From Narcine bancroftii (lineage: Eukaryota): a stretch of 64,000 nucleotides of DNA. Of this stretch, positions 3,818 to 37,559 are shown piece after piece (position 1 is the stretch's first letter; every line of letters begins with the position of its first letter). The stretch spans positions 205,778,001 through 205,842,000 of the forward strand of contig NC_091473.1 of assembly GCF_036971445.1 (NCBI RefSeq), given 5' to 3'. The notes under the pieces were generated by a model that saw only the letters and a program-made list of their open reading frames with translations, searched no databases and was not told the origin of the DNA. Both the position numbers and the translations under genes were made by a program.

Positions 3818-4572
3818 ATGTGCCTCCTGCGTTGTTTGTTGATTCAATGGTGCGGTTTGATTGGTGAGTCAGTCTGATGGTCATCCACTTCTGCCCATTA
3901 TCCTTGCCCTACGTGTCTCCCATTAATGTTCGACGATTCCCCAGACTCGCACACCTTCAGACTCCCTCCGTTTACTCATTTACACTTCCACCCTGTACTT
4001 ATTGATCTTCCTCGCATGTACTCTCTCTCCTCGCCGCTCTCGTGCGAAGGAACAACCCATGTCCCCAAGAGAGGTTCTTCTGCTTCCGACATGACCTTGC
4101 GTTTTTCTATTCGGCGAGCTTTTGGAAACTATCGATCCTACGAATTGAGGCCGGGCATCATGTTCATCTTGATTCTTGGGGCCGTTCTGCCTGCTGAGAC
4201 TGACTGGTCAACACTTACCGCGCGGGTTCAGCGCCGACCAGCGTTGTTCACGCATCCTGCTTCGTTCCAGGGTTGAGTGGGAAAGATTCAGTGACCCAAA
4301 GGCTGCCGCAACTGGTATTCGATGAAGGGCAGATCGTACCATTGAGCTGCAGTTCCTCGAAGAGGCTGAAGGCATATATTTGGTACATACTGGAGAATCT
4401 CCCAAATATTTGATGAAAATCTACACGTCAGGAGATTATCCGGAGAGGATTATAGGGTACATTGGAGAAGAGCCAGAAATTCCACCTCAACATCTCTAAA
4501 AGCCTTGTGGAGGACTCCGCCGTGTATCTCTGCGCCGTGAGACACACACTGTTCCAGATCCGCATAAAAATC
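3818..4572 (+). pseudogene. TRAV/TRDV-like V pseudogene (family A): distal leader 3818-3863, broken proximal leader from 4160, V exon ~4271-4544, RSS 4545-4572
   Basis: TTCCAG acceptor; SVTQ..EGQIVPLSCS..AYIWYI; frameshifts; FHLNISKSLVEDSAVYLCAVR; heptamer CACACTG. Confidence 0.85.
4545..4572 (+). promoter_or_regulatory. RSS with a 12-bp spacer (CACACTG-TTCCAGATCCGC-ATAAAAATC)
   Basis: Counted directly from the sequence; paralogous RSSs have 23-bp spacers. Confidence 0.65.
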
Positions 4573-4706
4573 GTACATAACCAATTCAATCGGACGCTGT
4601 GAGTATGAGCGCCCCGGCCATGGAATGGAAGGGACATCGCGGCATTCCTGGAGGGTCTGCTGCAACGCGGAGTTGCTGAGATCTGCCCTCATTTGAGCAT
4701 TTCTTC

Positions 4707-4708
<2 letters not shown>

Positions 4709-4782
<74 letters not shown>
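4709..4782. repeat. (CT)n microsatellite
   Basis: Perfect dinucleotide run. Confidence 0.95.
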
Positions 4783-4784
<2 letters not shown>

Positions 4785-5225: not shown

Positions 5226-5692
5226 ATGTTGAAATATTCGCTGCTTATCTTCATCCTGGCTCCCTCCTCATTTAGTTGTATGCTGATTCTGCGGGCCGTT
5301 CAACGACTGATTGGTCAGCGCGTGTCCCTCCCGTCTCAGCCCAATTCTTCGCATATCCTGCACTGCGTGCTTCGTTTCAGAAGCAATTGGGGAAATGTAT
5401 GATTGACAGATGGACATGGCTGCGGGAAGGCAAACAATGGCACCCGGCTAGTGTTACCTTATATTTTGGGCCGTTAAAATTCCCTTGAAATCTTAAATAA
5501 ATGCTTAAAAATAACACCTATGGCGATGAGGTTCCCTTTCACGATTATCCAGACAGGATGACGGTTACTTTGGAGAAAAGGGCCTGGATATTCCACCTCA
5601 ATATTTTTAAGCTCTTGAAGTGGCATTGGCCGTGTATCTTGGGCGACGCGGCTCACACTGTTCTTTGGAAATTGCGGAGACGCACAAAAGCT
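5226..5692 (+). pseudogene. V pseudogene (family B) with 23-RSS at 5654-5692
   Basis: Leader-like MLKYSLLIFILA; DRMTVTLEKRAWIFHLNI; CACACTG-23 bp-ACAAAAGCT. Confidence 0.75.
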
Positions 5693-6309
5693 GAATCTGA
5701 AATCGGATATGGCGGAAGCAAAACGGGAGAAAGACGACGGGAGACGTTAGGGATTGTGTAAAATTGAACAGGCGAAAATGTTAGATAGAATGATCTAGAG
5801 GAATAGAAAGGGAGACAGGAGATAAAAAGAGAGAAGACGGGGAGAGTGCACAGGTAGAGGGGGAAACCTTGCTGAAAGAAGGGGAATGCAATGCAGACTG
5901 TCTTCACAACGCGATCTGACTGATTAACGAATGACCACAACCAATCCTGTGTGAAGGAAACTCATCTATATCTGCCCCAGGTGTGAATCGCTCATAACAT
6001 CGCCCCTCCACCTGTACAGCGGTAACACAAGGAAATCTTCACTTCTGATCTTTAATCCACAGACCATGTTCTTCCAGAAGCGTTTGGTGATTCTTTGGGA
6101 CATTCTGACTGATGAGTCTGTCTGACTGGTCATCAACCTCTGCTCATTGCCCTTTATGTACGAATCTCTACCTTTACCTTCATTAAAGACAGACGATTTC
6201 CCCAAATATTCTGCTTTCCCTTACAGGTTCTCCCTCTGCTTGCTCATTTACACACTCTCTGCATTGACTGAACTTCCTCACGTTTTCACAGTCGCGCGCT
6301 CGCTCTGTC

Positions 6310-7360
6310 CTCGAAAACCAAGGTTCCCTCTGGTGACTTTCATCCTGACAGGAACATGCAAACACTGCACTCTCAAAATGTCGCCTTTGTAGGCCTTCCA
6401 CTGACTGTACACATATTTGCCATTAAACAGATTATTCCAGTCCACTCTTCCTAGATCCTTTCTCATTTCCATAAATTGGCCTCTCACCATTTTATAATAT
6501 TAACTCGCGGGCTAGACCTATCCATATCCATAATTAAATTGAAAATAATGACATTATGGTCACTCGACCCAAATGTTCGGCTACACCTGACCTGTCTGGT
6601 TCCCTTACATGAGATCAAGTATTGCATCAGCTCTCGGTAGCATCTATATATATTGATTAAGAAATCTTTCCTGAACAGATTTGATGAACGTTAAGCTACC
6701 CAGCCGTTTTATCACTTGGGGGTCCAGTCAATATATGGAAAATTAAAATCACCTACTATCCCAACTTTCTCTTTCTGACATCGGTCTGCTTACACTTCAC
6801 AGATATGCACCTTCAATTCTCTCGGACATTGTATGGTCTATAATACAAGCCCTTCAGTGTGGCCGCTCCTTATCCATTGCTGACCTCCATCCATATGGCC
6901 TCTGTAGACGAGCCTTCTCTGCTATCCTGTCTAAGCACTGCTGTGATAGTTTCCCTGACTAGCAATCTTACTCCCCCCCCCTTATGTCTGAAAGAGAGAA
7001 TCATGGAGGTCCTGCTGCACCTGCAACCACCTCTCAATAAAGGCGTAATTCCACGTGCCAATCCACGCCTTAAAACCGCCCGACCTTGTGGCAATACTCG
7101 TTGCATTGAAATAAATACACCTCAGAACATTTCTATCGTGTGCAAACATTTGATTTCTGTTTATACATGCAGTCCTCACATGACATCTATCCACCTCCAC
7201 CTCACTATCAGCTCTCACACTCTGGATTACCTCCCCCAACAAATCAAATTTAACCCACCGGAACAGCATCAGCAAACCTGCCCGCAAGGATATAGGTCCC
7301 CTTCCAGTTCGGATACAAATCCCCTGTCGGAACAGGTCCCACCTTCCCCGGAAGAGTGCC
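6310..7360 (-). mobile_element. CR1-type LINE fragment (endonuclease region), multiply deleted
   Basis: LRCIYFNATSIA..AWIGTWNY; GGGVRLLVRETITAVLRQD..STEAIWMEV; MRKDLGRVDWNNLF. Confidence 0.8.
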
Positions 7361-7389
7361 GAATGATATATCTATCGAGAGAGATTAAC

Positions 7390-7815
7390 GAAATATTCGA
7401 CAGTTCAGCTTCATCTTGGATTCCTCTTCATTCCGATGCTTGCTGATTCTACGGGCCGTTGTGCTTGGGGACTCTATGCCTGATGGGTCAGCTCGTGTCC
7501 CTCCCGCATCAATGCAATTCCTCACATTGTTCCGTTCCAGACACAAACGTGGGAATCCAGTGACCCACGGACCTGGAACAGAAGTGTCGCCGAGCTTTAG
7601 TTACCCGACAAGGGCTCCTGTATTTTTTTTGAAACATTGAAATTCTCCTGGAATCTTGGATATATTTGTTGAAAATCCACAGCTTAGGAGTAGACGATCT
7701 GTCGCACGATTGGATAGATAGGATGAAGGGAGATCCTGAAGCGGACTTGGCCGTTTATCTCTGTTCGGTGCGGTTCTCACCCTTGCTGGGAAATTGCGGA
7801 GGTACACATAATTTC
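7390..7815 (+). pseudogene. Highly decayed family-B-related V relic
   Basis: EADLAVYLCSVR motif and a degenerate RSS; paralogous to ~18120-18300 and ~27560-28045. Confidence 0.55.
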
Positions 7816-8230
7816 ATTCTGAGATGGGATGTGGTTAGAGAGAAAAGGGGAGAAGTAAGACGATAGAGCGTGTTGAGGATTGAGAAAAGTTAAGCAGGTG
7901 AAAGAGTGAGGCAGAGTGAGGAGGAACCGTAAAATGAATGAAGGGGTGAGACGGAGGAGTGAGGGAAAGCGAGGGAGGAGATACAAAGAGGGCAGGAGCA
8001 AGACGCGGGAAGTGGACAGAGAGGGAGAAACTGAGCGAAGGACGGGGAACGAGATGGGGATTGTCTTATCAACTCAGTCTAGTTGGTTCAATCATGGCCA
8101 GACGAACTAATCCTGTGAGAGGGAAACACTCTCATATCTGGCCCAGGCGTAATTTCGCTGATAACATCGCCCCACACTTGTACAGCGGTAACACAGGGAA
8201 ATCTTCGCTTTTGACCTTAATCCGTATACC

Positions 8231-8276
8231 ATGTCCCTCCTGAGTTGTTTGCTGATTCTGTGGGCCTTTCCGACTG
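8231..8276 (+). other. Distal V leader exon (MSLLSCLLILWAFPT/G), now separated from its V exon by the ERV
   Basis: ACC-ATG, 46-nt open hydrophobic exon, phase-1 G|GTGAGA donor. Confidence 0.7.
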
Positions 8277-8605
8277 GTGAGACTGTCTGATTGGTCATTG
8301 ACGTCTAATCATCATCTTTTCTCTATGTTTCTCCAACTTTAACCTAAAGAAAGTTGACAATTCCCCAAAATGTTACCGTCTCCCTCTACGTTCTCGCTCT
8401 GCTTGCTCATTTACATAGCCTGTGTTTATTAAACCTCCTCACGGTTCGTCTGTTTCTCTTCTCTCTCCGTCTCTCGCTCTTGGCTGTTTTCTGGCTTGGG
8501 AAACGGCGACTCAAACAGAGTTTCTGTTGCGTCCGACGTGGGATCGCGCTCTTATATGGTGGAGCATTTGTAAAATATCCTTGCTCCGAAATGAGTCTGT
8601 GCATC

Positions 8606-9367
8606 TGTAATGGAGGATTAAAACCATGTACTCAGATGCTTTTTGCTTATGTGGAACTGACGACACTGGGTCCACACGCAGGTCACCTTACTTTCAGAAC
8701 TAGCAGATGTAATTAAACTCAGCCATGGGGACTTATCTGAAGATACACTTTGAAATGGAATTCCACCGTGAGGCCCAGGGAAAGCAGTTGTCAAATACGA
8801 CACTCTGAAATTGACGTATTGGTCACAACCTGTCTTGCTCAAGAAGTTTTAATGAGTCCTTGTATCTACGAGATAAACCAGGATATCATAGCATCCTGCT
8901 CCATAATAATTAATCTTCTAAATTGTAGAATAGTATGCTCAGCTTTGATTTTGACTGACAAATGTTAGAGGGAGTAAATTGTTTTTGGGGTATAAAAGTC
9001 TGTGGTCCTGCTGCTGAAGTTTAGACTCTCCGAGGGGTGGGAACACCCCTTGTCAAGAAGGAAGAACAGCCAGAGTCCGAGCAACGTCCCGGTCGGGGGA
9101 GGTGGAGAAGCTGCTACCAGCGCCCTGACAACCTACTACAAGTGTGCAGTTGTTGCCTCGCTTCGGCAGTTGGGACCAGTCCAAGCGTTGATAAGTATAG
9201 TTGGGAAGGGCTTGCATATTGTAGTGTGAAATCAGCTTTTGAATTAGTAATAAACATTTGTATAAACTGAACTGCTCTCGGTGTGTATGTCTATTTTCTT
9301 TCGGTAGCTAAAACACTGTGACCAATCTAAAATGAACAAAATGAGAGGTATAAGTTTACCCAAGACA
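8606..9367 (+). repeat. ERV 5' LTR (762 bp)
   Basis: TGTAATGGAGG...CCCAAGACA; TATAAAA at ~8991; AATAAA at ~9249; nearly identical to the 3' LTR. Confidence 0.95.
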
Positions 9368-9369
9368 AT

Positions 9370-9387
9370 TGGCGCTGCGAGCAGGGT
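9370..9387 (+). promoter_or_regulatory. Primer binding site, tRNA-Ser type (TGGCGCTGCGAGCAGGGT)
   Basis: Two nt after the LTR; close to the complement of the 3' end of vertebrate tRNA-Ser(TGA/CGA), recalled from memory. Confidence 0.75.
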
Positions 9388-9397
9388 TGGTCTCAAG

Positions 9398-11188
9398 ATG
9401 TTTCGCCGAAAGAAAGAGGTGAGCCCTGAGCAGTTTTTGATTCCGGGATGGACTTCCAAAGATGATGGGTTTGGCATGCTGGCTAATACCCTGTCTTTGT
9501 TGGGACCACCCATCAGTTGGGATGAAAGGTTAGAACCCTTAAGTGTGCCTCTGGGAGAGCGGGTTGCCACTCTCCTCCGAGAAAGTAAATTTCCAAAAAA
9601 ACGGGGGACGCTGACAGACGGTTTTTGGCTGCTGGCCACAGCCTTACGCCACTCCGTTCAGCGTGAAGTTGAATTAGTTCAGCAGCAGGTAAAGTCTGAA
9701 CATAAGAGAAAACAACTAGAGGAGGAAGTAGAGACTCTGCGACAGCGCTGCTCGATGATGAGCGAAATTGTTAGCACCAGTCAGGATCGTGCCAAAGAAT
9801 GGGAGGATAAGCATGTTCAAACAATTTTCCGTAATATTAAACTCCGGCAACAGCTCTGTGCGAATAAGGAAAAGCAAGGGGTAGAACCTGATCCACACCG
9901 TATTCGTGCCATGATAAGGAATGGCAATGATCCTGATGTAATTGATGATTGGGACGGGAATATCTGGTATGATGATAATGGTAATAATGCAGATACCCCC
10001 CGGCATGTGCCTGGCATACTCCCCTCTCCCTCCGCTGTTCAAGCCCGCCCCGTAAGGCAGCGGACTGTCCAAGCAGATGAAGGCGAGAGGGGGGATGATG
10101 TAAGTGCAGAAACTGAAGGGACCGGTGCTCCGATCTCCCAAGCGGACCCAGGGGAAGGCTCCCAAACCCCTGCTTATGCTAGGTGGGCTCCCCCCTCAAC
10201 GGGATGGTCTCAGCAGCCTCCCATGTGCCAGAGTGGTAACAGGGGTCGGGAGCAGTCAACAACAATACGTGACTTTATAAAAGAGCTGGCCGCCATTGGA
10301 GATCGTTTTAGGCAAAAGACAGGAGAAACTTTGGCGGCCTGGCTTCTGCGGGTTTGGGAGCAAGGGGGAGGTAGCATATATCTGACCCCTGAGGAATTGT
10401 TGGGGTTAGGATCATTAACTACTGATATTCGAGTCACTGCTGAATTACGTGGCAGAAGGAGAGATGTAGACTATTTACTTGCTACTCTAGGAGAAGCCCT
10501 GTTACGGGTGTATCCGTCACCAGTAGATTGGGATCTGCATTTGCAGAACCATTGGGGCACACCAGAGGAGGGTATAGCAGTGATTCGCCAACAGGCCGTG
10601 GCCTCTGCTTTGTATGCGGGGCGCCTGAGGCTGTGGATGCATGGGGGGAGCCCTGATGAAGAATTATTCACAGCTGGAATGCATACCCGATTGGTTCGTT
10701 CAGCCCAACCTACTATACGGGGACTGGTCCTGTCTGTAACTAGTCCGCTAATTGGGCACCTCGTATCTGAGGCGGTGCACGCCCTATCTGGACTCCAAGA
10801 ACTGGAGTTGGGAGGTAAAATCCACTCACGTACAACCCAGGTTAAAGCAGACAGACAGGATGAAAGGAGAGGGGCTGCTGATAATAATGGACTGACCAGA
10901 AAAGAGCTTTTTCTAACTTTGTTAAAGTTAGGCGTACCTAAAAGTGATATTGATGGGAAACCTACTGCAGTCTTGTATGCCCTTTATAAGAGGAAGGCAG
11001 GGGAACATCATCCCCAGATGCTGGGTCCTCCCGGCCCAGCTGTGCCTTCTGCTCCCACTGCTGCTTCTATCGAGTCAGCTTCTCCTGCCCCAGTTACCCG
11101 TGATGAGGTAAAACAATGGGTTAAACAGGCTCTTAAGGATAACAATAGCATGTGGTCCTGGAAACCCCCGAACCCTTCTGAAGCCTGA
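9398..11188 (+). CDS. gag: ERV Gag polyprotein (ERV-L/Fv1-like, no zinc knuckle)
   Basis: Open ORF; the track start at 9332 lies in U5 and the first ATG after the PBS is 9398. ERV-L-type motifs LAAWLLRVWEQGG and LTRKELFLTLLKLGVPKSDIDGKPTAVLYALYK. Confidence 0.9.
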   Translation: MFRRKKEVSPEQFLIPGWTSKDDGFGMLANTLSLLGPPISWDERLEPLSVPLGERVATLLRESKFPKKRGTLTDGFWLLATALRHSVQREVELVQQQVKSEHKRKQLEEEVETLRQRCSMMSEIVSTSQDRAKEWEDKHVQTIFRNIKLRQQLCANKEKQGVEPDPHRIRAMIRNGNDPDVIDDWDGNIWYDDNGNNADTPRHVPGILPSPSAVQARPVRQRTVQADEGERGDDVSAETEGTGAPISQADPGEGSQTPAYARWAPPSTGWSQQPPMCQSGNRGREQSTTIRDFIKELAAIGDRFRQKTGETLAAWLLRVWEQGGGSIYLTPEELLGLGSLTTDIRVTAELRGRRRDVDYLLATLGEALLRVYPSPVDWDLHLQNHWGTPEEGIAVIRQQAVASALYAGRLRLWMHGGSPDEELFTAGMHTRLVRSAQPTIRGLVLSVTSPLIGHLVSEAVHALSGLQELELGGKIHSRTTQVKADRQDERRGAADNNGLTRKELFLTLLKLGVPKSDIDGKPTAVLYALYKRKAGEHHPQMLGPPGPAVPSAPTAASIESASPAPVTRDEVKQWVKQALKDNNSMWSWKPPNPSEA

Positions 11189-13435
11189 AGGTGTGGGCAG
11201 GATTCCCGTGTCTATTCCATCGAGACACGGCGCACACACGGGGATCCGCGGCCCTACATACCATTAACAATTCACTGGGGTGGGGGTAATGATCGCCAAT
11301 ACTTGGCTTTGGTTGACACCGGTGCAGAGCACTCGGTGATTCCTGGTAACCCCGACCTCTGGAACGGACCCACATTTCGAATAGAAGGAATGGGAGGGGC
11401 AATCACCCTGGCAAAGGAAATAAAAGTCCGTGCCACGGTGGGTGATGGCCCTTCCCCCATATGGTTACATGCGTTGGTAGCTGCCACTGACGAGTGTATT
11501 CTGGGTATTAATATGTTGGCCGGTACAGCCCTTAATACTAGCCAAGGGGGGTTTGCATTCGGAATTCGGACTATTACAAAAAGATTAGTGGTGGGTCAGG
11601 CCAAGTGGGATCCCGTGGTGGTGCCACCCCCCTCAAAACCTGTATGCATTCCGCAATATCGCCTCCCTGGAGGGCAGGAGGAGATTACCGCCACCATTGA
11701 TGCTTTGAAAGAAGAAGGGGTAGTGAGGCCTGCAACGTCGCCCTTCAATAGCCCTGTTTGGCCGGTCCAGAAGCTGGACGGCTCCTGGAGAATGACAGTT
11801 GATTATCGTTTTTTGAACAAACATGCCCCACCACTTGCTTCAGCAGTTCCGGACATTGTCACTCTTATTGAAAACATTGCTACTGGGAACTCAGGAACAT
11901 GGTATGCTGTCATTGATCTCGCTAAGGCCTTCTTCAGTATTCTTATAGCTGAGGACTCACAGGATCAGTTCGCCTTTACCTGGAAGGGGCGCCAGTATAC
12001 CTTCACCCACCTTCCAGTATCGCCTTCCCTCTCAATTCACCATTATATTGATGATGTGGCCTCCTGGAGCCTCTGGCAGAAACAAGAGGGTCGCCGAGTC
12101 CCACTAGGATTCTGGTCACGTACCATGCCTGAGGCTGCCACTCGTTATTCTGTTTTTGAACAACAGTTACTAGCCTGTTACTGGGCCCTGCTAGAGACTG
12201 AAAGAATGACAGGTGATGCAGATGTTCAATTGCGACCTGCACTTCCTATAATGAATTGGGTCCTGGCTAATGATGCTAATCTAAAGATCCGGCGGGCTCA
12301 GCAGTCTTCTATTGTTAAATGGAAGTGGTATATTCAGAGTCGTGCGACCAGAGGGCCTGAAGGGGTGGGCCGCATACACGAACAGGTGGCTTACCATCCT
12401 AGGTCAGGAACTCAGTTATCGGAGGAGGGGGATGGTGGCTCCAGTCAGTATGCTGAGTTGAAGGCAGTCACTTTACCACTAGATCCCCATGATCACCCTC
12501 TTCGCCTGTTTGCTGATTCCTGGGCTTTGGCTAATGGACTTGTGGTATGGATGCCTGATTTGCAAAAGAACAACTGGATGATACATGACCGCCCAGTATG
12601 GGGCAAAGAGTTGTGGCAGCTGTTGTGGGATGCTTCCCACCATCGTGAGATAACCGTTTATCACGTTGATGCCCATACCAATATGGCGACTAACATGGCT
12701 CAACATAATGCAGTAGCAGATCAGCTTGCCACTATCAGCTGTGCTGATACCGTCCCCCTGGCTCGATGGGCACATGAACAGAGTGGTCATTTGGGGGAGA
12801 AGGGATCAGCTATGTGGTCCCATACACATGCTTTATCCATCCATAAGGATGATGTCCGCATGGTCATATGTACATGCCCAGAATGTCAGCTTGTGAAGTT
12901 CCATACCGTTCCACCTGGTCCGCATGGCCGAATAAAACGGGGTGCTCACTCAGCTGCGGTCTGGCAAATTGATTACATAGGCCCCATGCTAGACTGCATG
13001 GGTAAATATTACGTCCTAGTAATGGTTGACACCTTTTCGGGCCTGGTTTTTACTTTTCCCACCAAGACGGCTGACCAAGCTAGCACTATCCAAGGACAAA
13101 ACCATTTGATTTATCGTTATGATGTTCCAGAGGAGATTCACTCTGATAATGGCTCGCACTTCTCCGGGAAAGCAATCTGTGATTGGGCAAATGACAACAG
13201 TATTTTATGGGTCCACCATATTCCTTATTACCCGCAGGCTGCCGGGTTAGTTGAACAAATGAACGGCTTACTGAAGGAACAAATTCATTTGTTAACATCA
13301 CTGGGGACCCAGAAGGGATGGTGCCATGTGCTGCAGCAGGCAGTCGACAATTTGAATCATCGCCCTTTAAAAGGAGGTACACCTTTCCACCGACTTCTTC
13401 ACGCTCCTGAATTACAGCCTATTCCAGAGGAATAA
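11189..13435 (+). CDS. pol: ERV Pro-Pol (PR, internally deleted RT/RNase H, integrase), in frame with gag after the TGA
   Basis: LALVDTGAE; SPFNSPVWPVQKLDGSWRMTVDYR; HYIDD; SSQYAELKAV; HHCC (WAHEQSGH..CPEC); WQIDYIGP / SDNGSHF / GLVEQMNG. A likely integrase C-terminal segment continues in frame at 13436-13624 after a TAA. Confidence 0.9.
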   Translation, partial: RCGQDSRVYSIETRRTHGDPRPYIPLTIHWGGGNDRQYLALVDTGAEHSVIPGNPDLWNGPTFRIEGMGGAITLAKEIKVRATVGDGPSPIWLHALVAATDECILGINMLAGTALNTSQGGFAFGIRTITKRLVVGQAKWDPVVVPPPSKPVCIPQYRLPGGQEEITATIDALKEEGVVRPATSPFNSPVWPVQKLDGSWRMTVDYRFLNKHAPPLASAVPDIVTLIENIATGNSGTWYAVIDLAKAFFSILIAEDSQDQFAFTWKGRQYTFTHLPVSPSLSIHHYIDDVASWSLWQKQEGRRVPLGFWSRTMPEAATRYSVFEQQLLACYWALLETERMTGDADVQLRPALPIMNWVLANDANLKIRRAQQSSIVKWKWYIQSRATRGPEGVGRIHEQVAYHPRSGTQLSEEGDGGSSQYAELKAVTLPLDPHDHPLRLFADSWALANGLVVWMPDLQKNNWMIHDRPVWGKELWQLLWDASHHREITVYHVDAHTNMATNMAQHNAVADQLATISCADTVPLARWAHEQSGHLGEKGSAMWSHTHALSIHKDDVRMVICTCPECQLVKFHTVPPGPHGRIKRGAHSAAVWQIDYIGPMLDCMGKYYVLVMVDTFSGLVFTFPTKTADQASTIQGQNHLIYRYDVPEEIHSDNGSHFSGKAICDWANDNSILWVHHIPYYPQAAGLVEQMNGLLKEQIHLLTSLGTQKGWCHVLQQAVDNLNHRPLKGGTPFHRLLHAPELQPIPEE

Positions 13436-13625
13436 CAGTCAATGCCCCCCATCCCCGAACTAGAGAATGTTGGACAAAAAGTATGGGTGGCACCACCAGG
13501 TAGTGGCCCTCCTGTAAAAGGGGAAATAGTGACACCTGCCCAGGGTAACACTCGGTGGGTAGCTATTGAGGGACAGGATGATTTAGTCTGTTTAAACACT
13601 GAACGCTTATGGTATCGTGAGTGAC

Positions 13626-14048
13626 ATGTGTCAGGCTTCTTTGTTCCAGGTTCTCCATTTTACACTCCTGGTGATCTGGCTTAACAGCTGCTTTGATGCC
13701 AGCAATTGGATTTGTAATGTCGAGGACGTTCCAAGGGAGTTCCCAGTGGGAAACACGGTCCGATGCATTACACCAAGGAAGTCCTCGGTCACCAGCCTCA
13801 AGTGCAGCTTATATAAATATGTTATTGTTCAGCATGTTTCAAAATCTGTTCGTGAGCTCCAGTATCTGGGTATTGTGGCCAACAAGGATAATTTGAGCCT
13901 TGGTTGGAATCCTTTCTCATGGCTAACTGCTACATTTGGGGGAGTGGGCCACAATATCCTCCGTTGGTTGCTCGCGTCATTGCTTATCTTTGTAATTGTT
14001 GTTTTGATTTCTCTTTTTTCGCTCCCTCTGTACTCAAATACTGGTTAG
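13626..14048 (+). CDS. env: Miniature env remnant (signal peptide, short Cys-containing ectodomain, membrane-proximal and TM region)
   Basis: Lies between pol and the polypurine tract; hydrophobic N-terminus; WNPFSWLTATFGG then LLASLLIFVIVVLISLF; splice acceptor TTCTTTGTTCCAG ends at 13649. Confidence 0.7.
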   Translation: MCQASLFQVLHFTLLVIWLNSCFDASNWICNVEDVPREFPVGNTVRCITPRKSSVTSLKCSLYKYVIVQHVSKSVRELQYLGIVANKDNLSLGWNPFSWLTATFGGVGHNILRWLLASLLIFVIVVLISLFSLPLYSNTG

Positions 14049-14073
14049 GCCTCGCAAATGACAGATTGTGACC

Positions 14074-14084
14074 AAGGGGTGGAA
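14074..14084 (+). promoter_or_regulatory. Polypurine tract (AAGGGGTGGAA)
   Basis: Immediately 5' of the 3' LTR. Confidence 0.75.
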
Positions 14085-14857: not shown

Positions 14858-14862
14858 GCATC

Positions 14863-15292: not shown

Positions 15293-15569
15293 TTCCTGAG
15301 TTCAATCGGACGCTGGGGATCGGGGTCCCCCTCGACCACGGAATGGAAGGGACAGCGCGATCTTCCTGAAGGGCCTGATGAAAAGTGGAGTTGCGGGAGA
15401 TTTGCCCTCCTCTGAGCGTTTCTCTTTCACTGAGTGCTCTTGGTCCGTGTTGTAGGTTGGAAGTCAGGGGCAGAGGGAGAAATAGGTAGGTATTTGTCAG
15501 TATATTGTAGGAAAATGAAGGAATGTTGGTTAGATGGAAGCTGAGAATTTTTTAAAAATCTTAGCCGCG

Positions 15570-21067: not shown

Positions 21068-21109
<42 letters not shown>

Positions 21110-26824: not shown

Positions 26825-26870
<46 letters not shown>

Positions 26871-27520
26871 TTAAGAAAAAATTGCTGAACAGGTTTGAAA
26901 AACATTAAGCCACCCAGCCTTTTTACCACATGGGGGTTCAGTCAATATATGGACATTAAAATTACCTACTATCCCAACTTTCTGTTTCTTACATCGGTCT
27001 GCTTACTCTTTTCAGATTTGCACCGTGAATTCTCTCGGACTATTGTACGGTCTATAATACAACCATTTCAGAATGGCCGCACCTTACCCGTTGCTGAGCT
27101 ACATCCATATGTCCTCTGAAGACGAGGCCTGTCATGTCTAATCTCACTCCTCCCCCTTTCACCCTCCCACATCATGTCTGAAAGAGAGAATCATGGAGCA
27201 ATGTGCGCACGTCTCACTAAAGGCAATAAAGTCGTGATTCCACGCCTTAAAACCGTCCGCCTTGTGGCAATACTCGTTGCATTGAATTAAACAGAATATT
27301 TCTATCGTGTGCAAACCTTTGATTTCTGTCTATATATGCAGACCTCACATGACATGCATCCACCTCCACCTCACTATCAGCTTTCACACTCTGGTTTCCC
27401 ACCCCACAAATCAAACTTAACCCACCGGAGCAGCATCAGGAAACCTGCCTGCAAGGATATAGGTCCCCTGCGAGTTCGGATACAAATCCCCTTTCGGAAC
27501 AAGTCCAACCTGCCCCGGAA
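26060..27520 (-). mobile_element. CR1-type LINE remnants containing a (TA)n run at ~26828-26867
   Basis: ITSRGHRFMVKGERLRGNL; paralog of 16720-18120. Confidence 0.75.
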
Positions 27521-27559
27521 GTGAGCCGAATGATATAACTGTCGAGAGATATTAACGAA

Positions 27560-28045
27560 ATATTCGACAGTTCGCCTTCATCTTGGCTTGGCCGATGCTT
27601 GCTGATTCTACATGCCGTTGTGCTTGGCGAGTCTCTGTCTGATGGATCAGCTCGTGTCCCTCCCGGCTCAGCGCATTTCCTCAAATTGTTCCCTTCCAGG
27701 CAGAAACGTGGAAATCTAGTGACCCACGGACCTGGAACGGAAGACGTGGGAAGTATCGCCGAACTTTAGGTTCCCTATAAGGAAGGGTTCCCGTATACTT
27801 TTGAAACATTGTAATTCCCGTGGAATCTTGGATATATTTGCTGAAAATCCACAGCTCAGGTGTAGAAGGTCTGTCTCACGATTGGACGGACAGGATGAAT
27901 GGTTCATTGGAGAAAAGGGATCGGATATTGTAGGTCACTATCTGCTGAGATCCTGAAGCGGGCTTAGCCGTTTATCTCTGTTCGGTGCGGTTCACACGTT
28001 CACACCCTTCCTGGGATATTGCGGAGGTACACAGGCTCATTCTGA
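27560..28045 (+). pseudogene. Highly decayed family-B-related V relic
   Basis: Paralog of 7390-7815; GLAVYLCSVR motif. Confidence 0.55.
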
Positions 28046-28560
28046 GATGGGATGTGGTTAGAGAGAAAAGGGGAGAAAGAAGTGGATAGAGCGTGTTGAG
28101 GATTGAGAAAGGTTAAGCAGGTGAACGAGTGAGATAGAAGTGAGGTATAACCGTAGAATGAATGAAGAGGTGAGACGGAGGTGTGAGGGAAATCGAGGGA
28201 GGATATAGAAAGAGGGGAGGTGAAAGACGCGGGAAGTGGACAGAGAGGGAGAAACTGAGCGAAGGACGGGGAACGAGATGGGGATTGTCTTATCAACTCT
28301 GTCTGGTTGGTTCAATCATGGCCAGACGAACTAATCCTGTTTGAAGGAAACACTCTCATATCTGGCCCTGGCGTCAGTTCGCTTTTAACATCGCCCCACC
28401 CTTGTACAGCGGTAACACAGGGAAATCTTCGCTTTAGACCTTAATCCGCGTACCAAATCCCTCCTGAGTTGTTTGCTGATTATGTGGGCCTTTCTGACTG
28501 GTGAGATTATATAGTCGAGCATTTGTAAAATATTCTTCCTCCGAATTGAGTCCGGGCATC

Positions 28561-28932
28561 ATTTTTCTTCAGAGCTGTTGGCTGAATGTGTGCACCGTTT
28601 TAACTGGTGAGAGTGATTGTTCAAGAAGTGTCCAGTGGGATCAGAGTTACCACGCGAGATTAACACCTTATATTTTGTTCCAGGGGCGAGTGGGAACGAT
28701 TCAGTTAATCAAGACCCCACGGAATTGGTGGTCTATGAAGGGCAGATCGTATCACAGAACTGCAATTACTCGAAGAGCCTGATTGTCCGGAGAGGAGATC
28801 AGGTACATTGGAGAAAAAGAGTCAGAAATCCCACCTTAACATCTCTAAAAGCCTTGTGGAGGATTCCGCCGTGTATATCTGCGCAGTGAAGCACACGCTG
28901 TTACCTGGCAGTGGCAGATGCCCACAAAAAAC
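28561..28932 (+). pseudogene. V pseudogene (family A), paralog of the 19 kb V with CDR1 to FR3 deleted; 23-RSS at 28894-28932
   Basis: ASGNDSVNQDPTELVVYEGQIVSQNCNY, then a jump to FR3; CAVK; CACGCTG-23-ACAAAAAAC. Confidence 0.87.
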
Positions 28933-29393
28933 ATAGCACACGAAATTCAATCAGACTGCCTGCTCTGTGTCTGGGGTGGGAGGTTGGAAGTCTTGAATAA
29001 ATAGACAGCTGTTTGCTGGAAATTGTACTTAAACGAAGGAGTGTTGGTTAGATAGAAGGGAGGGAGAGGTTATCACCACTCTCGAAAGCTTAAATAAGTG
29101 TAAGAGGGAGTTGCGTCGAAATAGAACGGGATAAACTGCGAGGGGGCCCAGGAAAACAAGAGAAGGTGATGGGAAGGGATGAGCGAGAGTGAAGCAGATA
29201 AAGACATGGAGGTGTAAACGTAGACGGAGAAACACGAGCGAAAATGACTGAGAATGAGAACAGACAACATTAATAACCAGATTTCATTGGTCCAGTCAGT
29301 GCGCCCTATTGAGCCGATGTGCGAGGAGGGCGCCTTCCTGTGTGTCCTAGAGGATGGGCCGCAACGGACGCGAATCTGCAGTCTTAGACTAAA

Positions 29394-29845
29394 ATGTTGA
29401 AATATTCGCTGTTTATCTTCATGCTGGCTTGCTCCCCATTCAGTTTTTTGTTGATTCTGTGGGCCGTTCAACTTGGCGAGCCTCTGACTGATTTGTCAGC
29501 GTGTGTCCCTACTGGCTCAGCACAATTCCTCGCATATCCGTCAATGCGAGCTTCATTCCAGGAAGAAATGGGGAAATGTAGTAACACACGGAAATGTCTG
29601 CGGGAAGCCAAGCAGTGTCACTGAAACTAGTTATACGACAAGTGTTGCCTTAAATTCTTTGGACGATAAAATCCCCTGGATCGTGAAATCTTGGATATAA
29701 CATCATATTCGATGTGGTTCAGTCTCACGATCGTCCGGACAGGATGACGGTTACTTTGGAGAAAAGGATCCAGATATTACACCTCAATATCTGGAACGCT
29801 CTTGAAGCGGTCTTTGGAAATTGCGAAGACGCACAAAAGCTGAAT
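29394..29845 (+). pseudogene. V pseudogene (family B), 3' end and heptamer deleted
   Basis: DRMTVTLEKRIQILHLNI; nonamer retained. Confidence 0.68.
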
Positions 29846-30351
29846 CTGAAATCAGATGTAGGTGGAATCAAAATGGGAGGAAGAGGACGCGAGATCCCGT
29901 TCGAGATTGCAAAAGGCCGAGCAGGTGAAAATGTTAGATAGAATGAGCTAGAGAATAGAATGAAAGAAGGGGAGAGAGGGGGCGAGGGAGGAGATAAAAA
30001 GACGGAAGACACGGCGACTGTACAGATAGAGGGAGAAACCGTGAAAGGAGAGCGCGATGCAGACTGTCTTCACAACGCGGTCTGATTGGTTCACGAATGA
30101 GATCATCAACCAATCCTATGTGAAGAAAACTCATTCATATCTGCCACAGGTTGTTTGTCCGCTCATAACATCGACCGACCTATATTTCCCTATATTCAGC
30201 TGTACAGGGAAATCTTCGCATTTGTCATTAATCCGCAGATCATGGCTGTTCTGTGTTTTTCGCCGATTCTTTGGGTCGTTTTGATTGGTGAGCATGTCCG
30301 ATATGTTACCGAACTCTGTCCATCCCCGGTAGTCGATGTGTCTTTAACTTT

Positions 30352-30830
30352 GTTAAGATAGCCCTAGCCGTAGCAAAAAAATGTATTATGTCAACCTGGA
30401 AATTGGAAGATAATTTGAATATACAACAATGGTATATAGAAATGAATAAATGTATTCCATTAGAAAAAAAAACATATAGTTTAAGAAATAATATTGAAAT
30501 ATTCGAACAAGTATGGGAGCCTTACATTAAATACAATAGCGAAAACCTACCGGGGACAAACATTACCTTAGTTGATGGAAGGAGAAGGAAAGAAAAGAAT
30601 GGACTCAGTAGAATATCTGGTGTATTTTTGTTGAATGACAACATTGTCTGACTGGTTTAATGCAACCTAGATTGTATACCTAAAATGGATGAGAGGGGGG
30701 GTGGGGGGGTGGCTTGGGAGGAGGGAGGGGGGGGGGAGAAAAAGTCACTGTATATGTGTGAAAAAGAAAAAGTGTACATCATGGCTAATGTGATTTATGG
30801 TGTGAAAAATAAAAAATTTAAAAAAAAAAA
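30352..30830 (+). mobile_element. 5'-truncated L1/Tx1 LINE with polyA tail
   Basis: ORF2 C-terminus WYIEMNKCIPLEKKTY..FEQVWEPY; AATAAA and A-tail; absent from the paralogous site at ~20950 (TTT/AAC). Confidence 0.8.
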
Positions 30831-30924
30831 CATTAGTAAAGTTAGATGAGTTCTAACTTGAGTTCGATCTTGTGTTGGGTGAGCATTTGGAAAATTTCTT
30901 TCTTCCCAATTGAATCCGAGCATC

Positions 30925-31387
30925 ATGTTCCTCCTGAAGATTGGTCAGATTCTCAGGGCTGTTCAGCCAGCTGAGACATATTGGTCCACAAGGGCCGCGA
31001 GGGTGCAGTACGATCCAGCGGCCTTCACTCATTCTGCTTTGTTCCATCAGCGAGTGCGAATGATTCACTGACACAAAGTCCGCCGCAAATGATAGTCCAT
31101 GAAGTGCAGATTGTGGAACTGAACTGTCGTTACTCAATGAGAACCTATGCTTATTTTTGGTACATTCAACATTCCGGAGAATCTCCAAAATATTTGATGA
31201 AGATCCAGACGTCAGAACACGTGATTCCTTCTCGCGATTGTCCTGAGAGGATATCGGGTTCCTTAAAGAAAACTAGCAAGAGATTCTACCTTAATATCTC
31301 ATAAATCCGCGTGGGGGATTCCGCCGTGTATCTCTGCGCCCTGGAGCTCCCGCTGTTCCAGAGTGGAGGGGGATCTGCACAAAAACT
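30925..31387 (+). pseudogene. V pseudogene (family A): V exon ~31051-31348 with a single TAA in FR3; distal leader at 30242-30287
   Basis: DSLTQSPPQM..ELNCRYSMRTYAYFWYIQHSGESPKYLM..LNIS*IRVGDSAVYLCALE; CCCGCTG-23-ACAAAAACT. Confidence 0.87.
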
Positions 31388-32629
31388 CACCTTGAGAACA
31401 GTCATCTCTCGCGGTAGCTTGGGGACGCACTCGGTCCCCATAAGCCAGTTCTGTCAGTCAGATTAAAAGAAGGGTGAAGTCAACGCCGAGGTGCTGGAGA
31501 TTTTCCCTCCTCTTACGTTTCTTTTTCTCTGCATCCGTTTCGTTTCTTTGATGTTGAAGGTAGAATGTCAGGTAGGAAGAATAAGTGAACAGATGTTTCG
31601 CAGAATATAGTGGGAAAAGGGAAGTTGTATTTTTGTGAGGGAAATTGAGAGTTTGATAAAGGCAGCGTGAGGATGGCCGCACATTGCATAGAGTAGGGGA
31701 CAAAGCAGGCAACCTTGGATTGATGCCATGTTTCTGATCATCGTAGAGGAGGTGATGTTGCCGATGAGCACTGGTTGGGCATTCCAATGAGGAAGTAACA
31801 GATCCAGTCACAGATCGTTGTACAAAGTACCGGATCCTTTAGATTGGTCATCCGCATTGCAAGTGTGAGGGTGTTGAACGCAGGGCATTAGTCCATGAAC
31901 AGCCAACCCACTAAGGTATTTCTGCGTTATAGGTGATTTAATGAATAGTGGACCATAAACAATAAGGGGGGTCGTCACTTGTGGCGACGGGCGATGGGCG
32001 AATTTAAATGTATTCAGGTCTTTCCCGTGATAGGTGTTCATGCGCTCGATAACCAACCGGCCAAAACATTTCCTCCAAGTCCTTTCATTTGCTCCTGTTG
32101 GGCAAGACAAGGAAAGAGCACAGAGGAAGCAAAATCTCATAGAAATGCTGGAGCAACACAGCCGGTGTCGCAGAGCCCAAAAGGAGGGAAACATACCTAA
32201 CCGATATTTCGGATCTGAGTCCTTCTGCAATGAATATGAAAATCTTCGGAAGGTGTTAAAATAAAGACTGCAGACTGACCGGGTTCGGGAGGGAGGGGTA
32301 GTCCAGAACGACAGTTGCTAATTGGATATGGAAGGTAAAGAGGTGAGAATTGATTTTGTTTCTGTCAAGGGATACAGAGGGAAACTCGCATAGACAGAGA
32401 TACAGAACGAGGAATAGACATAGATNNNNNNNNNNNNNNNNNNNNNNNNNNNNNNNNNNNNNNNNNNNNNNNNNNNNNNNNNNNNNNNNNNNNNNNNNNN
32501 NNNNNNNNNNNNNNNNNNNNNNNNNNNNNNNNNNNNNNNNNNNNNNNNNNNNNNNNNNNNNNNNNNNNNNNNNNNNNNNNNNNNNNNNNNNNNNAGATAG
32601 AATGCAAAAGGAGGAAGAAATATCTTTTT

Positions 32630-32992
32630 ATCTTTATCCTGATTGCCTCCCCTTTCAGTTGAGTCTGTGGACCATTCTACTTGACGAACCTCTGACTGAT
32701 TTGTCAGCTCGTGTCCCTCCCGGCTCAGCGCAATTTTTCCCAGATTTCATTCACTGCATGTTTCGTTCAGGCACATATTGAAATATCGTGGCCCATATAT
32801 TAAATGCTTAAACACAATAACCGAGACGATGTGGTTCCGCCTCACGATTGTCTGGACAGGATGACTTTGGAGAAAAGGGGCCGGATATTTCACCTCAATA
32901 CCTCGAAATATTTTGCAGTGGACTTGATCGTGTATCTCAGCGCAGTGTGGCTAACGCTGTTCTTTCGAAATTTCTGGACGCACAAAAACTGT
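32630..32992 (+). pseudogene. V pseudogene (family B)
   Basis: DRMTLEKRGRIFHLNTSKYFAVDLIVYLSAV; paralog of 23030-23391. Confidence 0.65.
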
Positions 32993-33375
32993 TTCTGAAA
33001 TCGTACGTGGTTTGAAATGAATCCCGAGAAAGAGGATACAAGAACACGTTAGGTATTGCTTAATGTTGAACAGGTGAAAATGTGGGTCAGAATGAGCTTC
33101 AAGAATTGAACGAAAGGAGAGAGGGAGCGAGGGAGGAGAAAAAAGGGTAGATGCGGGGAGTGTACAGGAAGAGGGTTCGTGAAGCGAGGGGAATGCATGC
33201 AAACTGTCTTCACTAACGCGATGTTATTGGTTGAATAATGACCACACCAACCAATCCTTTATGAAGGAAATACTCTCATATCTGCCCCAAGTGTGAGACC
33301 GCTCATAACATTTCCCCACCAATTGTACTGCGGTCAAAGAAGGAAATCTTAGCTGATGATCTTCATCCAGATACC

Positions 33376-34190
33376 ATGTTCATCGTGAGTGGTTTGGTGA
33401 TTCGTTGGGGCGTTCTGACTGGTGGGTCTGTATGAATGGTCAGCGACCTCTGCCCATTGTTCTTTCTCTACGAATCTCTAGCTTTAACCGAATTAAAGAC
33501 AGACAATTCCCCTAAATTTCTTCGCTCTCCCTTGCACGTTCTTCCTCCGCTTACTCATTTACCCACTCTCAGTGTTTACTGAACTTCCTCGCAGTTTCAC
33601 TGTCGCTATCCACCCCCCCTCGCTCTTTGCCGTTTTCGTGCGATGGAATCTGCGACACAAATTGAGTTTTGCTGCTTTCGAAGTGGGTACGCGACCTGAC
33701 ATGGTCGAGGAATTGTAAAATATCCTTCTTCCGAATTTAGAGCGGGCATCATGTTCCTACTGATTTGATAGCTGGTTTGATGCACCATTCCGCCTGTTGA
33801 GACTAATTGGTCAACTTGTGCCGCGCGGGTTCAGAGCCATCCAGCGACGTTCACTCATTTTGTTTTGTTCCAGGAGCGAGGGCGAAGGATTCAGTGACCC
33901 AAAGCCCGCCGCAAATGATAGAGGATGAAGGACAGATCGTATAAATGAGCTGTCGTTACTTGGTTAGACCCGACACTAATTTTTGGTACATCCAGTAGAA
34001 TCTCCAAAATATTTGTTGAAAATCTACACGACCGAGTCGTGGTTCAGTCTCACGATTGTCCTGAGAGAATATCGCGTTCTTTGAGGAAAAAGAAAATGAT
34101 ATCCCACCTCAACATCTCTGAAAGCCTTGTGCAGGATTCCGTCGTGTATCTCACGCAGCTTCAGGGCAGTGGTAGATCCACACAAAAAGC
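33376..34190 (+). pseudogene. V pseudogene (family A): distal leader 33376-33421, V exon from 33874, RSS 34152-34190
   Basis: DSVTQSPPQM with stops; same Cys-removing deletion as the 24.5 kb copy; CACGCAG-23-ACAAAAAGC. Confidence 0.85.
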
Positions 34191-34934
34191 AAACCTCATG
34201 GAATTTAATCGGACGCTGTGTCTCGGGGGCGCCTTCTGCAAGGAATGGAAGCGACAGCGCAATCTTCCTGAAGGGCCTGCTGAAACAGTGCCAGGAGATT
34301 TGCCCTCCTCTGAGCGTTTCTCTTTCTGTTTGTGCTCTGGGTCTTAGTTGGAAGTTGGAAGTCATGTGGAAAGGAAGAAAGAGATAAGTATTTGTTAGTA
34401 TATTGTAGGAAAATGAAGGAGTGTTGATTAGATGGAAGTTGAGAGATTTAAAGTGTTGCAGCCGCGCGGGTGGGTGGGAGTTGTACACGGTCCCTCAGAC
34501 CTGTTATTGCTAAAATGAACAACTTGCTCCTTGGCCTTGATGATATTAAGAACATAATTGTCGTTCTCGAACCAGCCAAACTGGTTCTCGATCACCATCC
34601 TACATTAAGACTCATCATTCCCAATTATTTGGGGAGCCCTGGTGGCGCCTTCAGCTAATTTGTAGATTGTGTTTGGGGTGAAATTGGCAGAAAAGCCATG
34701 GGTGAACTTGGCAGAGTTTGAAGGGAGGGAGAGATTGGCACTGCTCTCTAATGATTAACTAAGTGTAAGACGGAGTCGCCTCAAGGAACGAAGCATAACA
34801 GACCGCGAGGAGCAGGTTTCATTGGTTCAGGAACGGCGTTCGATTCAACTGATATGAGAGAAGGGCGTCTTCTTGTGTGTCCTAGAGGATGCGCTGCTAC
34901 TGTCACGACCATACAGTTTTATATCGGACTAAAA

Positions 34935-35404
34935 TGCTGAAATATTCGCCTGTTTATCTTCATCCTGGCTTCCTCCCCATTCAGTTTTTTCTGCTGATCC
35001 TGTGGGCCGTTCCACTTGTCTGATTGGTCAGCGCGTGTCCCTTCCGGCTCAGCGCAATTCTTCGCGCATCATAAACTGCGTGCCTCGTTACAGGAACAAA
35101 TGGGGAAATGTAGTGTCACACGTACATGTCCGCGGGAAGGCAAGCAGTGTCACTGACTTCTATTTAATCGACAAATGTAACCTTATATTTGTGGTACGTT
35201 AAAATTCCCGTTGACCGTGAAATCTTGGGAATAACATCCTAGTCGATGTGGCTCCGTGTCACGATTGTCTGGCCAGGGTGACGGTTAATTTGGAGCAAAG
35301 GGGCCGGATATTCCACCTCAAAAATCTTGAACCGGCTTGGACGTGTCTCTCTGCGCGGTGCGGCTCACACTGTTCTTTGGAAATTGCGGAGATGCACAAA
35401 AGCT
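34935..35404 (+). pseudogene. V pseudogene (family B) with 23-RSS at 35366-35404
   Basis: LCAVR followed by CACACTG-TTCTTTGGAAATTGCGGAGATGC-ACAAAAGCT. Confidence 0.72.
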
Positions 35405-37559
35405 GATTCTGAAATCGGATGTGGGTGGAATAAAATCCGGAGACAGAGGACGCGAGAACGGGTAAGGAACTCCTTACGGTCGAGCAGCTGAAAATATTAG
35501 ATACAACGAGCTAGAGGAATAGAATGAAAGAAGGGGTGAGAGGGAGTGAAGGAGGATAAAAAAAAGAGGTAAGACTCGGGGTGTGTACAGGTCGAGAGAG
35601 AAACCTTGGTGGAAGAAGGGGAACGTGATGCAGAATGTCTTCTCAACGCCATCTGATTGGTTGACGAATGATAACATCAACCAATCCTGTGTGAAGGAAA
35701 CTTATTCATATCTACCCCAGGTTTTAGTCGCTCATAACATCTTCCAAACACTTGTATACTGGTAGCACAAGGAAAATTTCTTTTGATGTTAATCCACAAA
35801 CCATGATCTTCTTGAATGGTTTGGTAATTCTTTGGGCTGTTCTTACTGGTTAGTCTGTCTGACTGGTCAGCGACCTCAGCCCATTGCNNNNNNNNNNNNN
35901 NNNNNNNNNNNNNNNNNNNNNNNNNNNNNNNNNNNNNNNNNNNNNNNNNNNNNNNNNNNNNNNNNNNNNNNNNNNNNNNNNNNNNNNNNNNNNNNNNNNN
36001 NNNNNNNNNNNNNNNNNNNNNNNNNNNNNNNNNNNAAATCTGCATGAAGCTAATTTTCTTGAATTTTAAATATGGTCGGAAAACAGGAAGAACAATGAAC
36101 CGTAAATCTGTTTGAGAAATAGGTAACAGAAGAAATAGTTCGCAGGTGTCTGTTTTTGGCGAGTGGGGGTGTGGGAGAGGTGGAGAGGGTGGGGGGAGGT
36201 AGGAGACCGACCATGAAACTGCAAGGAAGGTCAGTAAACACAATAAGTGTATAAATGAGTAAGCAGAGGGAGAATGTGCAAGGAAGAGCGCAAATTTTGG
36301 GGAAATCGTCTGTCTTTAATTAGGTTAAAGCTGGAGATTAGTAGAGAAAGGGCAATGGGCTGAGGTCGCTGACCAGTCAGACAGACTCACCTGTAAGAAC
36401 GGCCCAAAGAATCACCACACCACTCAAGAAGTTCATGGTATGTGGATTAAGATCAAAAGAAAATTTCCTTGTGCTACTGCTGTACAAGTGGTGGAACGAG
36501 AAAGAGAGGGAGAGGTGAGATCAGGTGAAAAAGTGAGAGAGATGGAAGTCCAGAATGTCAGTCTCTCGGATGTCTGAGCATCCGTTATTGCTCTAGAAAT
36601 TTGTTTGTTCCAGGTCATGTGGCTAAATTAGTATTTTCAATCCCGTATTGCTGAAATTCGCGATCAACAACAGCCGTGACACATCTTAATGTTGACTTTG
36701 CGGTCGATCGCCTCACTGATCCTGTTATGTTCCTACACTTCAATCAAATGAGAATGCTATCAGATGTTTGCGGATATCTTGTTCCATCCAATCCGATCGT
36801 TGTCAGTTGTTGGCACAGCAGAGTAATGGGTTCATTGTTTGGCATTTGTATTGTTGCCTCGAGTTTGGCGGACTTTAATTATATTCACACACGAAGCATT
36901 ATATAGTGCCAATCTTTAGAATACTCAAGCTCCTCAGATAACTTTCCATTTTAATATTGGCACCTGTAAGCAGGCATTGGAAAATGGAAGTTATTACAAA
37001 TATTAAGGAAGAAGATGAAAATTTCTGCAATATTGCTTTTGTGAAAAGGGGCTGCCAGGACATGACCGGAGTATAGGCTGAAAGAGCATTGGCAGTCGGG
37101 TTTCTGAGAGTGCACACCTTCAGTTACACGTATTCGGGTTAAAGATACGAGGTAAGAAGGTACCGATGTACGATATTATGGTTATGTATGGAGTTACAGG
37201 CCTTGCTTAGGTTGAAAACCATAAATCTGCTGGCAATTTTCTTTACATTGGAGGTCCTGCGAAGGGAGTTTAATGAATGCCAAGGAGGTGGGCAGTTAAA
37301 TGCACAATTATAGTAATCAGCATTGATGCATATTCTAACATTGAGTTTAAATTAGATGTATTGTTCGTTGGCGAATAGTTCCTTGCAATTGCTTTTTAGA
37401 AGATAGCTGAAGAACTCAAAGTCTAATAAAATGATCTTGCTGCATAAATGATTTCAATACATGAAATAAAAACGTATTTCATCACATCGTCTGTTTGCTC
37501 TGCATTCTTTATCACTGAAGCCAACAATGAAAGTTTCAGAGAAAATATTACGTTGTATC

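Follow-up and report, generated by a model that had tools for sequence, protein, structure and literature searches.

The 64,000-nucleotide stretch of Narcine bancroftii DNA analyzed here (the window; contig NC_091473.1 of assembly GCF_036971445.1, forward-strand positions 205,778,001 to 205,842,000) holds a tandem array of variable (V) segments of what is likely a T cell receptor (TCR) locus. The array spans 2.9–36.5 kb and consists of eight segments of one family (family A) and some eleven of another (family B). Each family-A V exon is preceded by two leader exons, which we call distal and proximal. We think it probable that these V exons are spliced from the distal, upstream leader over their own broken leader, with the promoter and signal peptide likely derived from a third V lineage, the V exon of which was likely lost by deletion ahead of the expansion of the array.

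Two leader exons ahead of each family-A V

A reading made from the letters of the window (the sequence-only reading) had described two leader exons of about 46 nt per family-A V, about 100–400 bp apart, with every proximal leader broken. Both statements hold. The start-to-start spacing is 106–406 nt, the exceptions being a pair with an insertion (683 nt) and the pair 8231/14863, which is separated by a long terminal repeat (LTR) element (375 nt once the element is subtracted). On inspection of all 18 leaders named in that reading, none of the eight proximal leaders was intact, as against seven of the ten distal leaders. These seven (3818, 8231, 18712, 20842, 30242, 33376 and 35803) have an ATG, an open frame and a phase-1 GT donor, and those at 6066, 23771 and 28455 are damaged, just as had been stated. 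An additional distal-type leader, inverted and starting at 36436, is also intact. Eight distal leaders have a V behind them, six of the eight being intact; those at 6066, 35803 and 36436 have none in view. The leaders are as follows.

3818..3863, + strand: distal leader, intact
4160..4193, + strand: proximal leader, 12-nt in-frame deletion, donor GT to CT
6066..6111, + strand: distal leader, donor GT to AT, no family-A V behind it
8231..8276, + strand: distal leader, intact, paired with 14863 on the far side of the LTR element
14863..14908, + strand: proximal leader, TGA at codon 7
18712..18757, + strand: distal (orphan) leader, intact, spliced to V19055 (joint in run X3)
18934..18979, + strand: proximal leader, ATG to ATT, GT donor kept
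20842..20887, + strand: distal leader, intact; its paralog is spliced to a paralog of V21371 (joint in run X2)
21248..21293, + strand: proximal leader, donor GT to CT, core containing six residues that are polar or charged
23771..23815, + strand: distal leader, broken (CTG start, 1-nt deletion with frameshift, GC donor)
24152..24197, + strand: proximal leader, donor GT to TT
28455..28500, + strand: distal leader, start lost (AAA)
28561..28606, + strand: proximal leader, ATG to ATT (in common with 18934)
30242..30287, + strand: distal leader, intact
30925..30970, + strand: proximal leader, donor GT to CT (in common with 21248)
33376..33421, + strand: distal leader, intact
33751..33796, + strand: proximal leader, three stops and donor GT to TT
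35803..35848, + strand: distal leader, intact, followed by an assembly gap
36391..36436, − strand: eleventh distal-type leader, inverted, intact, no V in view

The module containing the inverted leader (36188–36494, minus strand) adjoins the assembly gap and is about 25% diverged from 35803; it points to an inversion, or to the array continuing in inverted orientation.

The proximal leaders keep their ATG in six of eight copies and a hydrophobic core in several, and five have lost the +1 G of the donor (to C at 4160, 21248 and 30925 and to T at 24152 and 33751). The sequence-only reading had portrayed the lesions as differing from copy to copy. Each lesion is real, but they are not independent: sister copies share the ATT start (18934/28561), the CT donor (21248/30925) and the TT donor (24152/33751), five donors are struck at the same base, and the lesions amount to 3–5 events on the tree. 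The leader at 33751, attributed in that reading to a stop, in fact has three, together with a donor loss that had been missed.

Stops, frameshifts or lost cysteines break seven of the eight family-A V exons, and when six distal leaders were joined to their own V exons only 18712 with 19055 gave an open frame (115 codons).

4271..4544, + strand: V pseudogene, frameshifts and a stop
14986..15287, + strand: V pseudogene, stop, 1-nt deletion, second Cys lost
19055..19355, + strand: V19055, V-set, the one family-A V exon that is open, its frame continuous with that of the distal leader
19356..19394, + strand: 23-spacer recombination signal sequence (RSS) of V19055, heptamer CACGTTG (CACGCTG in a run X1 contig)
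21371..21675, + strand: V21371, first Cys to Tyr, 4-nt insertion in the assembly at 21574
24275..24570, + strand: V pseudogene, 1-nt insertion, 15-nt deletion of the second Cys in common with V33874
28684..28893, + strand: V pseudogene, 91-nt deletion, sister of V19055
31048..31348, + strand: V pseudogene, acceptor moved 3 nt, stop, RSS CAC to CCC
33874..34165, + strand: V pseudogene, stops, frameshifts, second Cys deleted

V19055 encodes a V-set domain (PF07686, E 1.5e-14) with both cysteines and the conserved tryptophan, a combination found in none of the other seven copies. The family-A leader is split, with a 46-nt exon, a phase-1 intron, a GT..AG joint and an open frame. The RSS heptamer consensus is CACAGTG, from which the heptamers of the 23-nt-spacer RSSs at 19356–19394 and 21676–21714 deviate; that of V19055 (19360) is better in one expressed relative than in the assembly. 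At 31048–31053 the acceptor AG has become AT and a new AG 3 nt downstream keeps the frame, in an exon whose stop and broken heptamer remain.

Probable transcripts joining the distal leader to V

Contigs from three runs of the same species (X1, X2 and X3, all of one study and RNA by guess) were aligned to window positions 18300–22700, which is 4,401 of the 64,000 bases and two of the eight units (126 contigs; likeness 80). X3 covers 9 of 30 bins and X1, which may hold DNA or pre-mRNA, 25 of 30. The junction from 18757 to 19055 that had been predicted from the sequence was found in a 234-nt X3 contig (depth 3.3; GT..AG, record 15, alignment 18756 to 19054 with the cut moved by +1), which begins 16 nt before the ATG and differs from the window at one of 61 leader letters and seven of 173 V letters. 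A second GT..AG joint, from 20887 to 21371 (record 11, alignment 20886 to 21370, cut likewise moved by +1), comes from an X2 contig of a more distant paralog, with 15 mismatches in 109 letters on the leader side and 26 in 137 on the V side. Assignment of this contig to 30242/31048 is unsupported; it shows no gap at the 3-nt deletion of 30242. A proximal donor is used in none of the eight listed joints, even though the GT of 18934 is retained, and five of the eight are paralog alignment breaks that lack splice ends. Two introns are thereby defined.

18758..19054, + strand: 297-nt intron removed in the X3 contig, holding the proximal promoter-like region, the proximal leader (dead) and, at 18815–18817, a pyrimidine-rich CAG that is skipped
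19557..21370, + strand: read-through intron, its donor cryptic and located beyond the RSS, its acceptor that of the following family-A V (GT..AG, joint 19554 to 21369 with the cut moved by +2, X1 and X2)

The second of these joins 19269–19556 to 21371, as unrearranged germline RNA running from V to V through the RSS.

Might both leaders serve as alternative promoters in functional copies elsewhere in the locus, the proximal one being dead only here? The ATGs and hydrophobic cores of the proximal leaders, together with their ratio of nonsynonymous to synonymous change (dN/dS) of 0.70, indicate that the proximal leader worked near the root, and the expressed contigs are not identical to the window. 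However, the ATT lesion is common to the units of 18934 and 28561, which are about 11% apart, and the X3 spliced contig is only 4% from V19055; the source of the contig therefore likely carries the lesion as well. As no listed joint is proximal either, we hold this alternative to be distinctly improbable.

Six listed pieces extend into the final 30 nt of a family-A V. Three halt 1, 3 and 8 nt before the coding end (matches end at 19354, 21672 and 21667; coding ends 19355 and 21675) and continue into 94, 85 and 33 unlike letters, and from the positions of these breaks they are likely V(D)J joints. Of the others, one reads through the RSS and two halt at 19331, resembling another paralog. Contigs of all three runs are without the 4-nt insertion of V21371, and haplotypes or close paralogs likely differ in functional status. 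Hypermutation, which the accessible part of PMC5931798 describes for nurse shark TCR alpha, could explain some of the V mismatches of the contigs; alleles or paralogs could do so equally.

The sequence-only reading had expected such genes to be miscalled as pseudogenes. This would apply to V19055 and, apparently, to an expressed relative of V21371 that is free of the frameshift, but not to the rest, seven of the eight V exons in this assembly being real pseudogenes with either leader. Within the window, rescue by the distal leader extends to V19055 only, and the size of the effect is small at one of eight copies.

Decay, selection and the origin of the distal leader

A naive Fisher test on leader intactness gives p = 0.004, a value that is overstated because sister copies share lesions. 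We therefore relied on trees, which take in the exons and their promoter-like flanks (CpG effects lying outside the model), and on a neutral rate from eight duplicated non-coding stretches (580 substitutions and 40 indels). In simulations of neutral decay the probability of finding no intact proximal leader among eight was 0.33 with indels and 0.13 without, that of at least seven intact distal leaders among ten was 0.004 and 0.04, respectively, and that of any open V was 0.003 and 0.07. Proximal decay fits neutrality; distal retention exceeds the neutral expectation. The lesion comparison corrected for ancestry that had been proposed along with the sequence-only reading upholds the contrast: under an irreversible-loss model, the distal loss rate is 2.5 (0.6–6.4) and the proximal rate 15–35 per substitution/site (p 0.011–0.017 over three event scenarios), and the distal rate differs from neutral at p 0.005 with indels. 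Together with the two distal joints, this test supports the proposed switch to an upstream leader with splicing over the old one.

The V exons have a dN/dS of 0.56. In two sister pairs (18934/28561 and 21248/30925) a proximal lesion is held in common and no V lesion is, and therefore in these the V outlived its own leader; in the third (24152/33751) leader and V were both already dead. Recombination has occurred in the array, the 8231 leader grouping with 18712 and its V lying elsewhere on the tree, and the root within family A is unsupported (38/26).

Several observations weigh against splicing from a captured leader as the route by which family-A V segments are expressed. Each distal joint is a single low-depth contig (3.3 and 6.0) from likely-RNA runs of one study, and read support covers two of the eight units. 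The contigs are 2–19% off the window and hence represent other alleles or paralogs, for which the state of the proximal leader is read from the tree. No contig among the records spans leader, V and joining (J) segment, leader–V and V-end contigs being separate. All family-B V exons are dead, as are seven of the eight of family A, and no remnant proves that a V was lost behind the distal leader. When the slower neutral rate (without indels) is used, the distal leaders depart from it at p = 0.07 only, and dN/dS over the 14 leader codons, at 1.01 for distal as against 0.70 for proximal, is of no help or even contrary. Finally, unrearranged read-through and unspliced transcripts are present too, so the distal splice could be sterile RNA.

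If it were, the array would be a pseudogene graveyard whose distal promoter drives only sterile germline RNA, with no protein made and the leader surviving by chance or past selection. The broken V exons and the distal dN/dS of 1.01 agree with this, as do the lack of start codons in the family-B leaders, the transcripts running from RSS to next V, unspliced paralog contigs at a depth of 26–37 and the deviant heptamer of V19055 in the assembly. Sterile RNA, however, needs neither an ATG nor an open hydrophobic frame, yet these have been kept beyond neutral expectation; moreover, three contigs end at the V coding end and relatives of V21371 are expressed without the frameshift. We judge a purely sterile output unlikely and return to the captured leader.

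From where did that leader come? The promoter-leader modules (distal, proximal and family B) form three clades with 99–100% support, with about 70% identity within clades and 47–50% between them. It follows that the distal module is not a recent copy of the proximal one; by its divergence it appears to be a third lineage, about as old as the split between families A and B. Tandem duplication of the proximal leader is ruled out as its origin (48% identity, separate clades), and its ATG start and leader homology rule out a J-like segment of a unit of the new antigen receptor TCR (NAR-TCR) kind. A lone weak match to a 12-spacer RSS at 23473 is not kept in sister units. The suggestion that the leader was left by a deleted neighboring V is made plausible by the third leader lineage, but the deletion itself stays conjectural, as nhmmer (--max, E up to 20) found no V-like sequence in any interval between distal and proximal leaders. 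About 60 nt into the distal intron, four copies have a pyrimidine tract ending in CAG or TAG, which is skipped in the X3 contig and is perhaps the old acceptor of the distal leader.

The proximal leader is likely the native leader of family A because its module has the layout of an ordinary gene: a promoter-like stretch, leader, short intron and V, as in family B. The converse, in which family A began with the distal exon as its leader and the proximal module was inserted afterward and at no time functional, draws on the unsupported root (38/26), at which a dead donor is equally parsimonious, and on the lack of a V remnant behind the distal leader. Such an insert would have had to bring a leader with its own short intron exactly to the acceptor, which is contrived; the module has normal family-B geometry, and its leader is 47% identical to B leaders, comparable to the 54% between A and B exons. 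We give this converse very little credence.

The capture of an upstream leader by family A could have proceeded as follows. Deletion of a third-family V would have spared its promoter and leader, placing them some 330 nt ahead of a family-A gene, and transcripts from the orphan promoter would have been spliced to the next strong acceptor, that of family A, as in mouse Trbv12-2/13-2. The native proximal leader would thereby have become redundant. The unit (family-B V, orphan leader, old leader and family-A V) would then have been duplicated, the old leader dying in 3–5 independent events, at a pace close to neutral, with selection maintained on the orphan leader and V. Most copies would later have died as ordinary pseudogenes, as is usual for V arrays, and surviving ones would rearrange through the 23-RSS to yield alpha or delta chains with a borrowed signal peptide. 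The broader proposition, to which we lean by a modest degree, is that an entire TCR V family that still rearranges took over, for good, the promoter and the signal-peptide exon of a neighboring V lineage now extinct, that the family was amplified after this takeover and that its own leader was lost on several independent occasions. This would be exon shuffling between V genes, fixed in the germline, with the captured promoter setting expression and accessibility to recombination.

The array, its surroundings and known systems

Sister units arose by a duplication of about 9.7 kb and are 82–86% alike, which rules out chance or an assembly artefact as the source of the two-leader layout. Among 150 listed of 1,173 matches, ten of which were looked up, the nearest relatives of V19055 (ranking named single-domain or V-only entries) are XP_055487445.1 of Leucoraja (45%), UniRef100_A0A4W3GAV1 of Callorhinchus (44%) and GCC21066.1 and GCC19782.1 of Chiloscyllium (41%). 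TRAV/TRDV rather than immunoglobulin V sequences are nearest, the names of shark and skate matches being mostly uninformative, and the best single-chain relatives of the 19055–19355 exon among solved structures are TCR alpha chains. With its closest relatives in skate, bamboo shark and elephant shark and in TCR alpha structures, the array is therefore likely a cartilaginous-fish TCR alpha/delta V region. A word-based protein search yielded no near-length homologue of the family-A V, and a longer protein search returned no full-length family-A chain, its yield being 35 multi-V gene models from other vertebrates. The window contains no J or constant segment.

5262..35405, + strand: about 11 interleaved family-B V pseudogenes with their own third leader type and, after each, a distal leader or more of the array
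8606..14857, + strand: LTR retroelement, 6.25 kb, 5-bp target duplication, LTRs 98.4% alike

Family-B V exons are about 54% identical to those of family A at the DNA level and are decayed, and the start codon is absent from its expected place in all ten aligned leaders; the family was likely dead before its amplification as a passenger of the unit. The LTR element is young. It has matches to reverse transcriptase, RNase H and integrase and a short open reading frame (ORF) before the 3′ LTR, and it sits 5 nt before the proximal ATG at 14863, cutting that leader off from its promoter-like region. An unspliced X1 contig lacking the element was considered as its empty site, a notion weakened by matches to that unit at only four of five and six of ten listed letters; instead of being an empty allele, the contig may stem from a paralog. 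Older partial copies of the LTR (79–82%) lie at 40069–40426 (−) and 41741–42132 (+), ORFs resembling those of long interspersed elements (typed by translation alone) at 46554–48330 and 54804–55409, and decayed V fragments of other families at 2917–3091, 56885–57113, 57619–57915 and 60072–60137.

The family-A segments resemble cartilaginous-fish TCR alpha/delta V segments (Leucoraja, Chiloscyllium and Callorhinchus) in their V-set domain, split leader and 23-RSS, and may be set apart by their two leader exons per V. Borrowing of a leader is already known from mouse, where splicing between TRBV12-2 and TRBV13-2 was reportedly first described by Chou et al. in 1987. In the accessible portion of a recent preprint, the TRBV12-2 L-PART1 is spliced to the TRBV13-2 V-EXON in 46,029 of 69,248 TRBV13-2 transcripts, "true" TRBV13-2 transcripts persist and few other genes borrow leaders (bioRxiv 10.64898/2026.01.30.702900). 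As far as that portion goes, the likeness is that an upstream unit's leader exon is spliced to a downstream V over the latter's own leader. Unlike in mouse, where the donor leader is part of a complete V gene and the recipient leader is still usable, the donor here has no V, the native leader is dead in all eight copies, and the donor lies about 300–480 nt from the acceptor and has been duplicated with V in all eight units. A second parallel is the supporting TCR delta V of NAR-TCR in sharks and elephant shark, which in the available text of PMC1845163 lacks a leader and has a cysteine in complementarity-determining region 1 (CDR1). There too, on that text, a cartilaginous-fish TCR V is entered from an upstream exon and makes no use of a leader of its own. 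Entry in NAR-TCR is, however, from a rearranged NAR-type V domain and not a 46-nt leader, and we see no CDR1 cysteine in V19055 or the other copies and no diversity or J segment in between. Family A is not a supporting V of this kind; the V upstream of it belongs to family B, with 54% likeness. A fixed, family-wide two-leader V with an orphan donor was not found in the literature searched, from which most subscription papers (key shark TCR locus papers among them) and supplements were missing; the accessible parts of PMC8517844, PMC2275272, PMC6795676 and PMC12227049 hold nothing on two-leader V genes.

Annotation rules under which V must have a sound leader beside it (for example, as given in the accessible parts of PMC10972964 and PMC8656973) would miscall working genes of this kind as pseudogenes, and repertoire amplification primed on leaders would miss family-A genes that use a borrowed one. 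If our interpretation is true, leader-based annotation misses captured leaders wherever they are present. The promoter-leader module and the V exon would then be permanently swappable in the germline, the end point of the optional borrowing seen in mouse, and the array would serve as a natural experiment for asking if a downstream V promoter is silenced, or outcompeted, by another that lies upstream of it.

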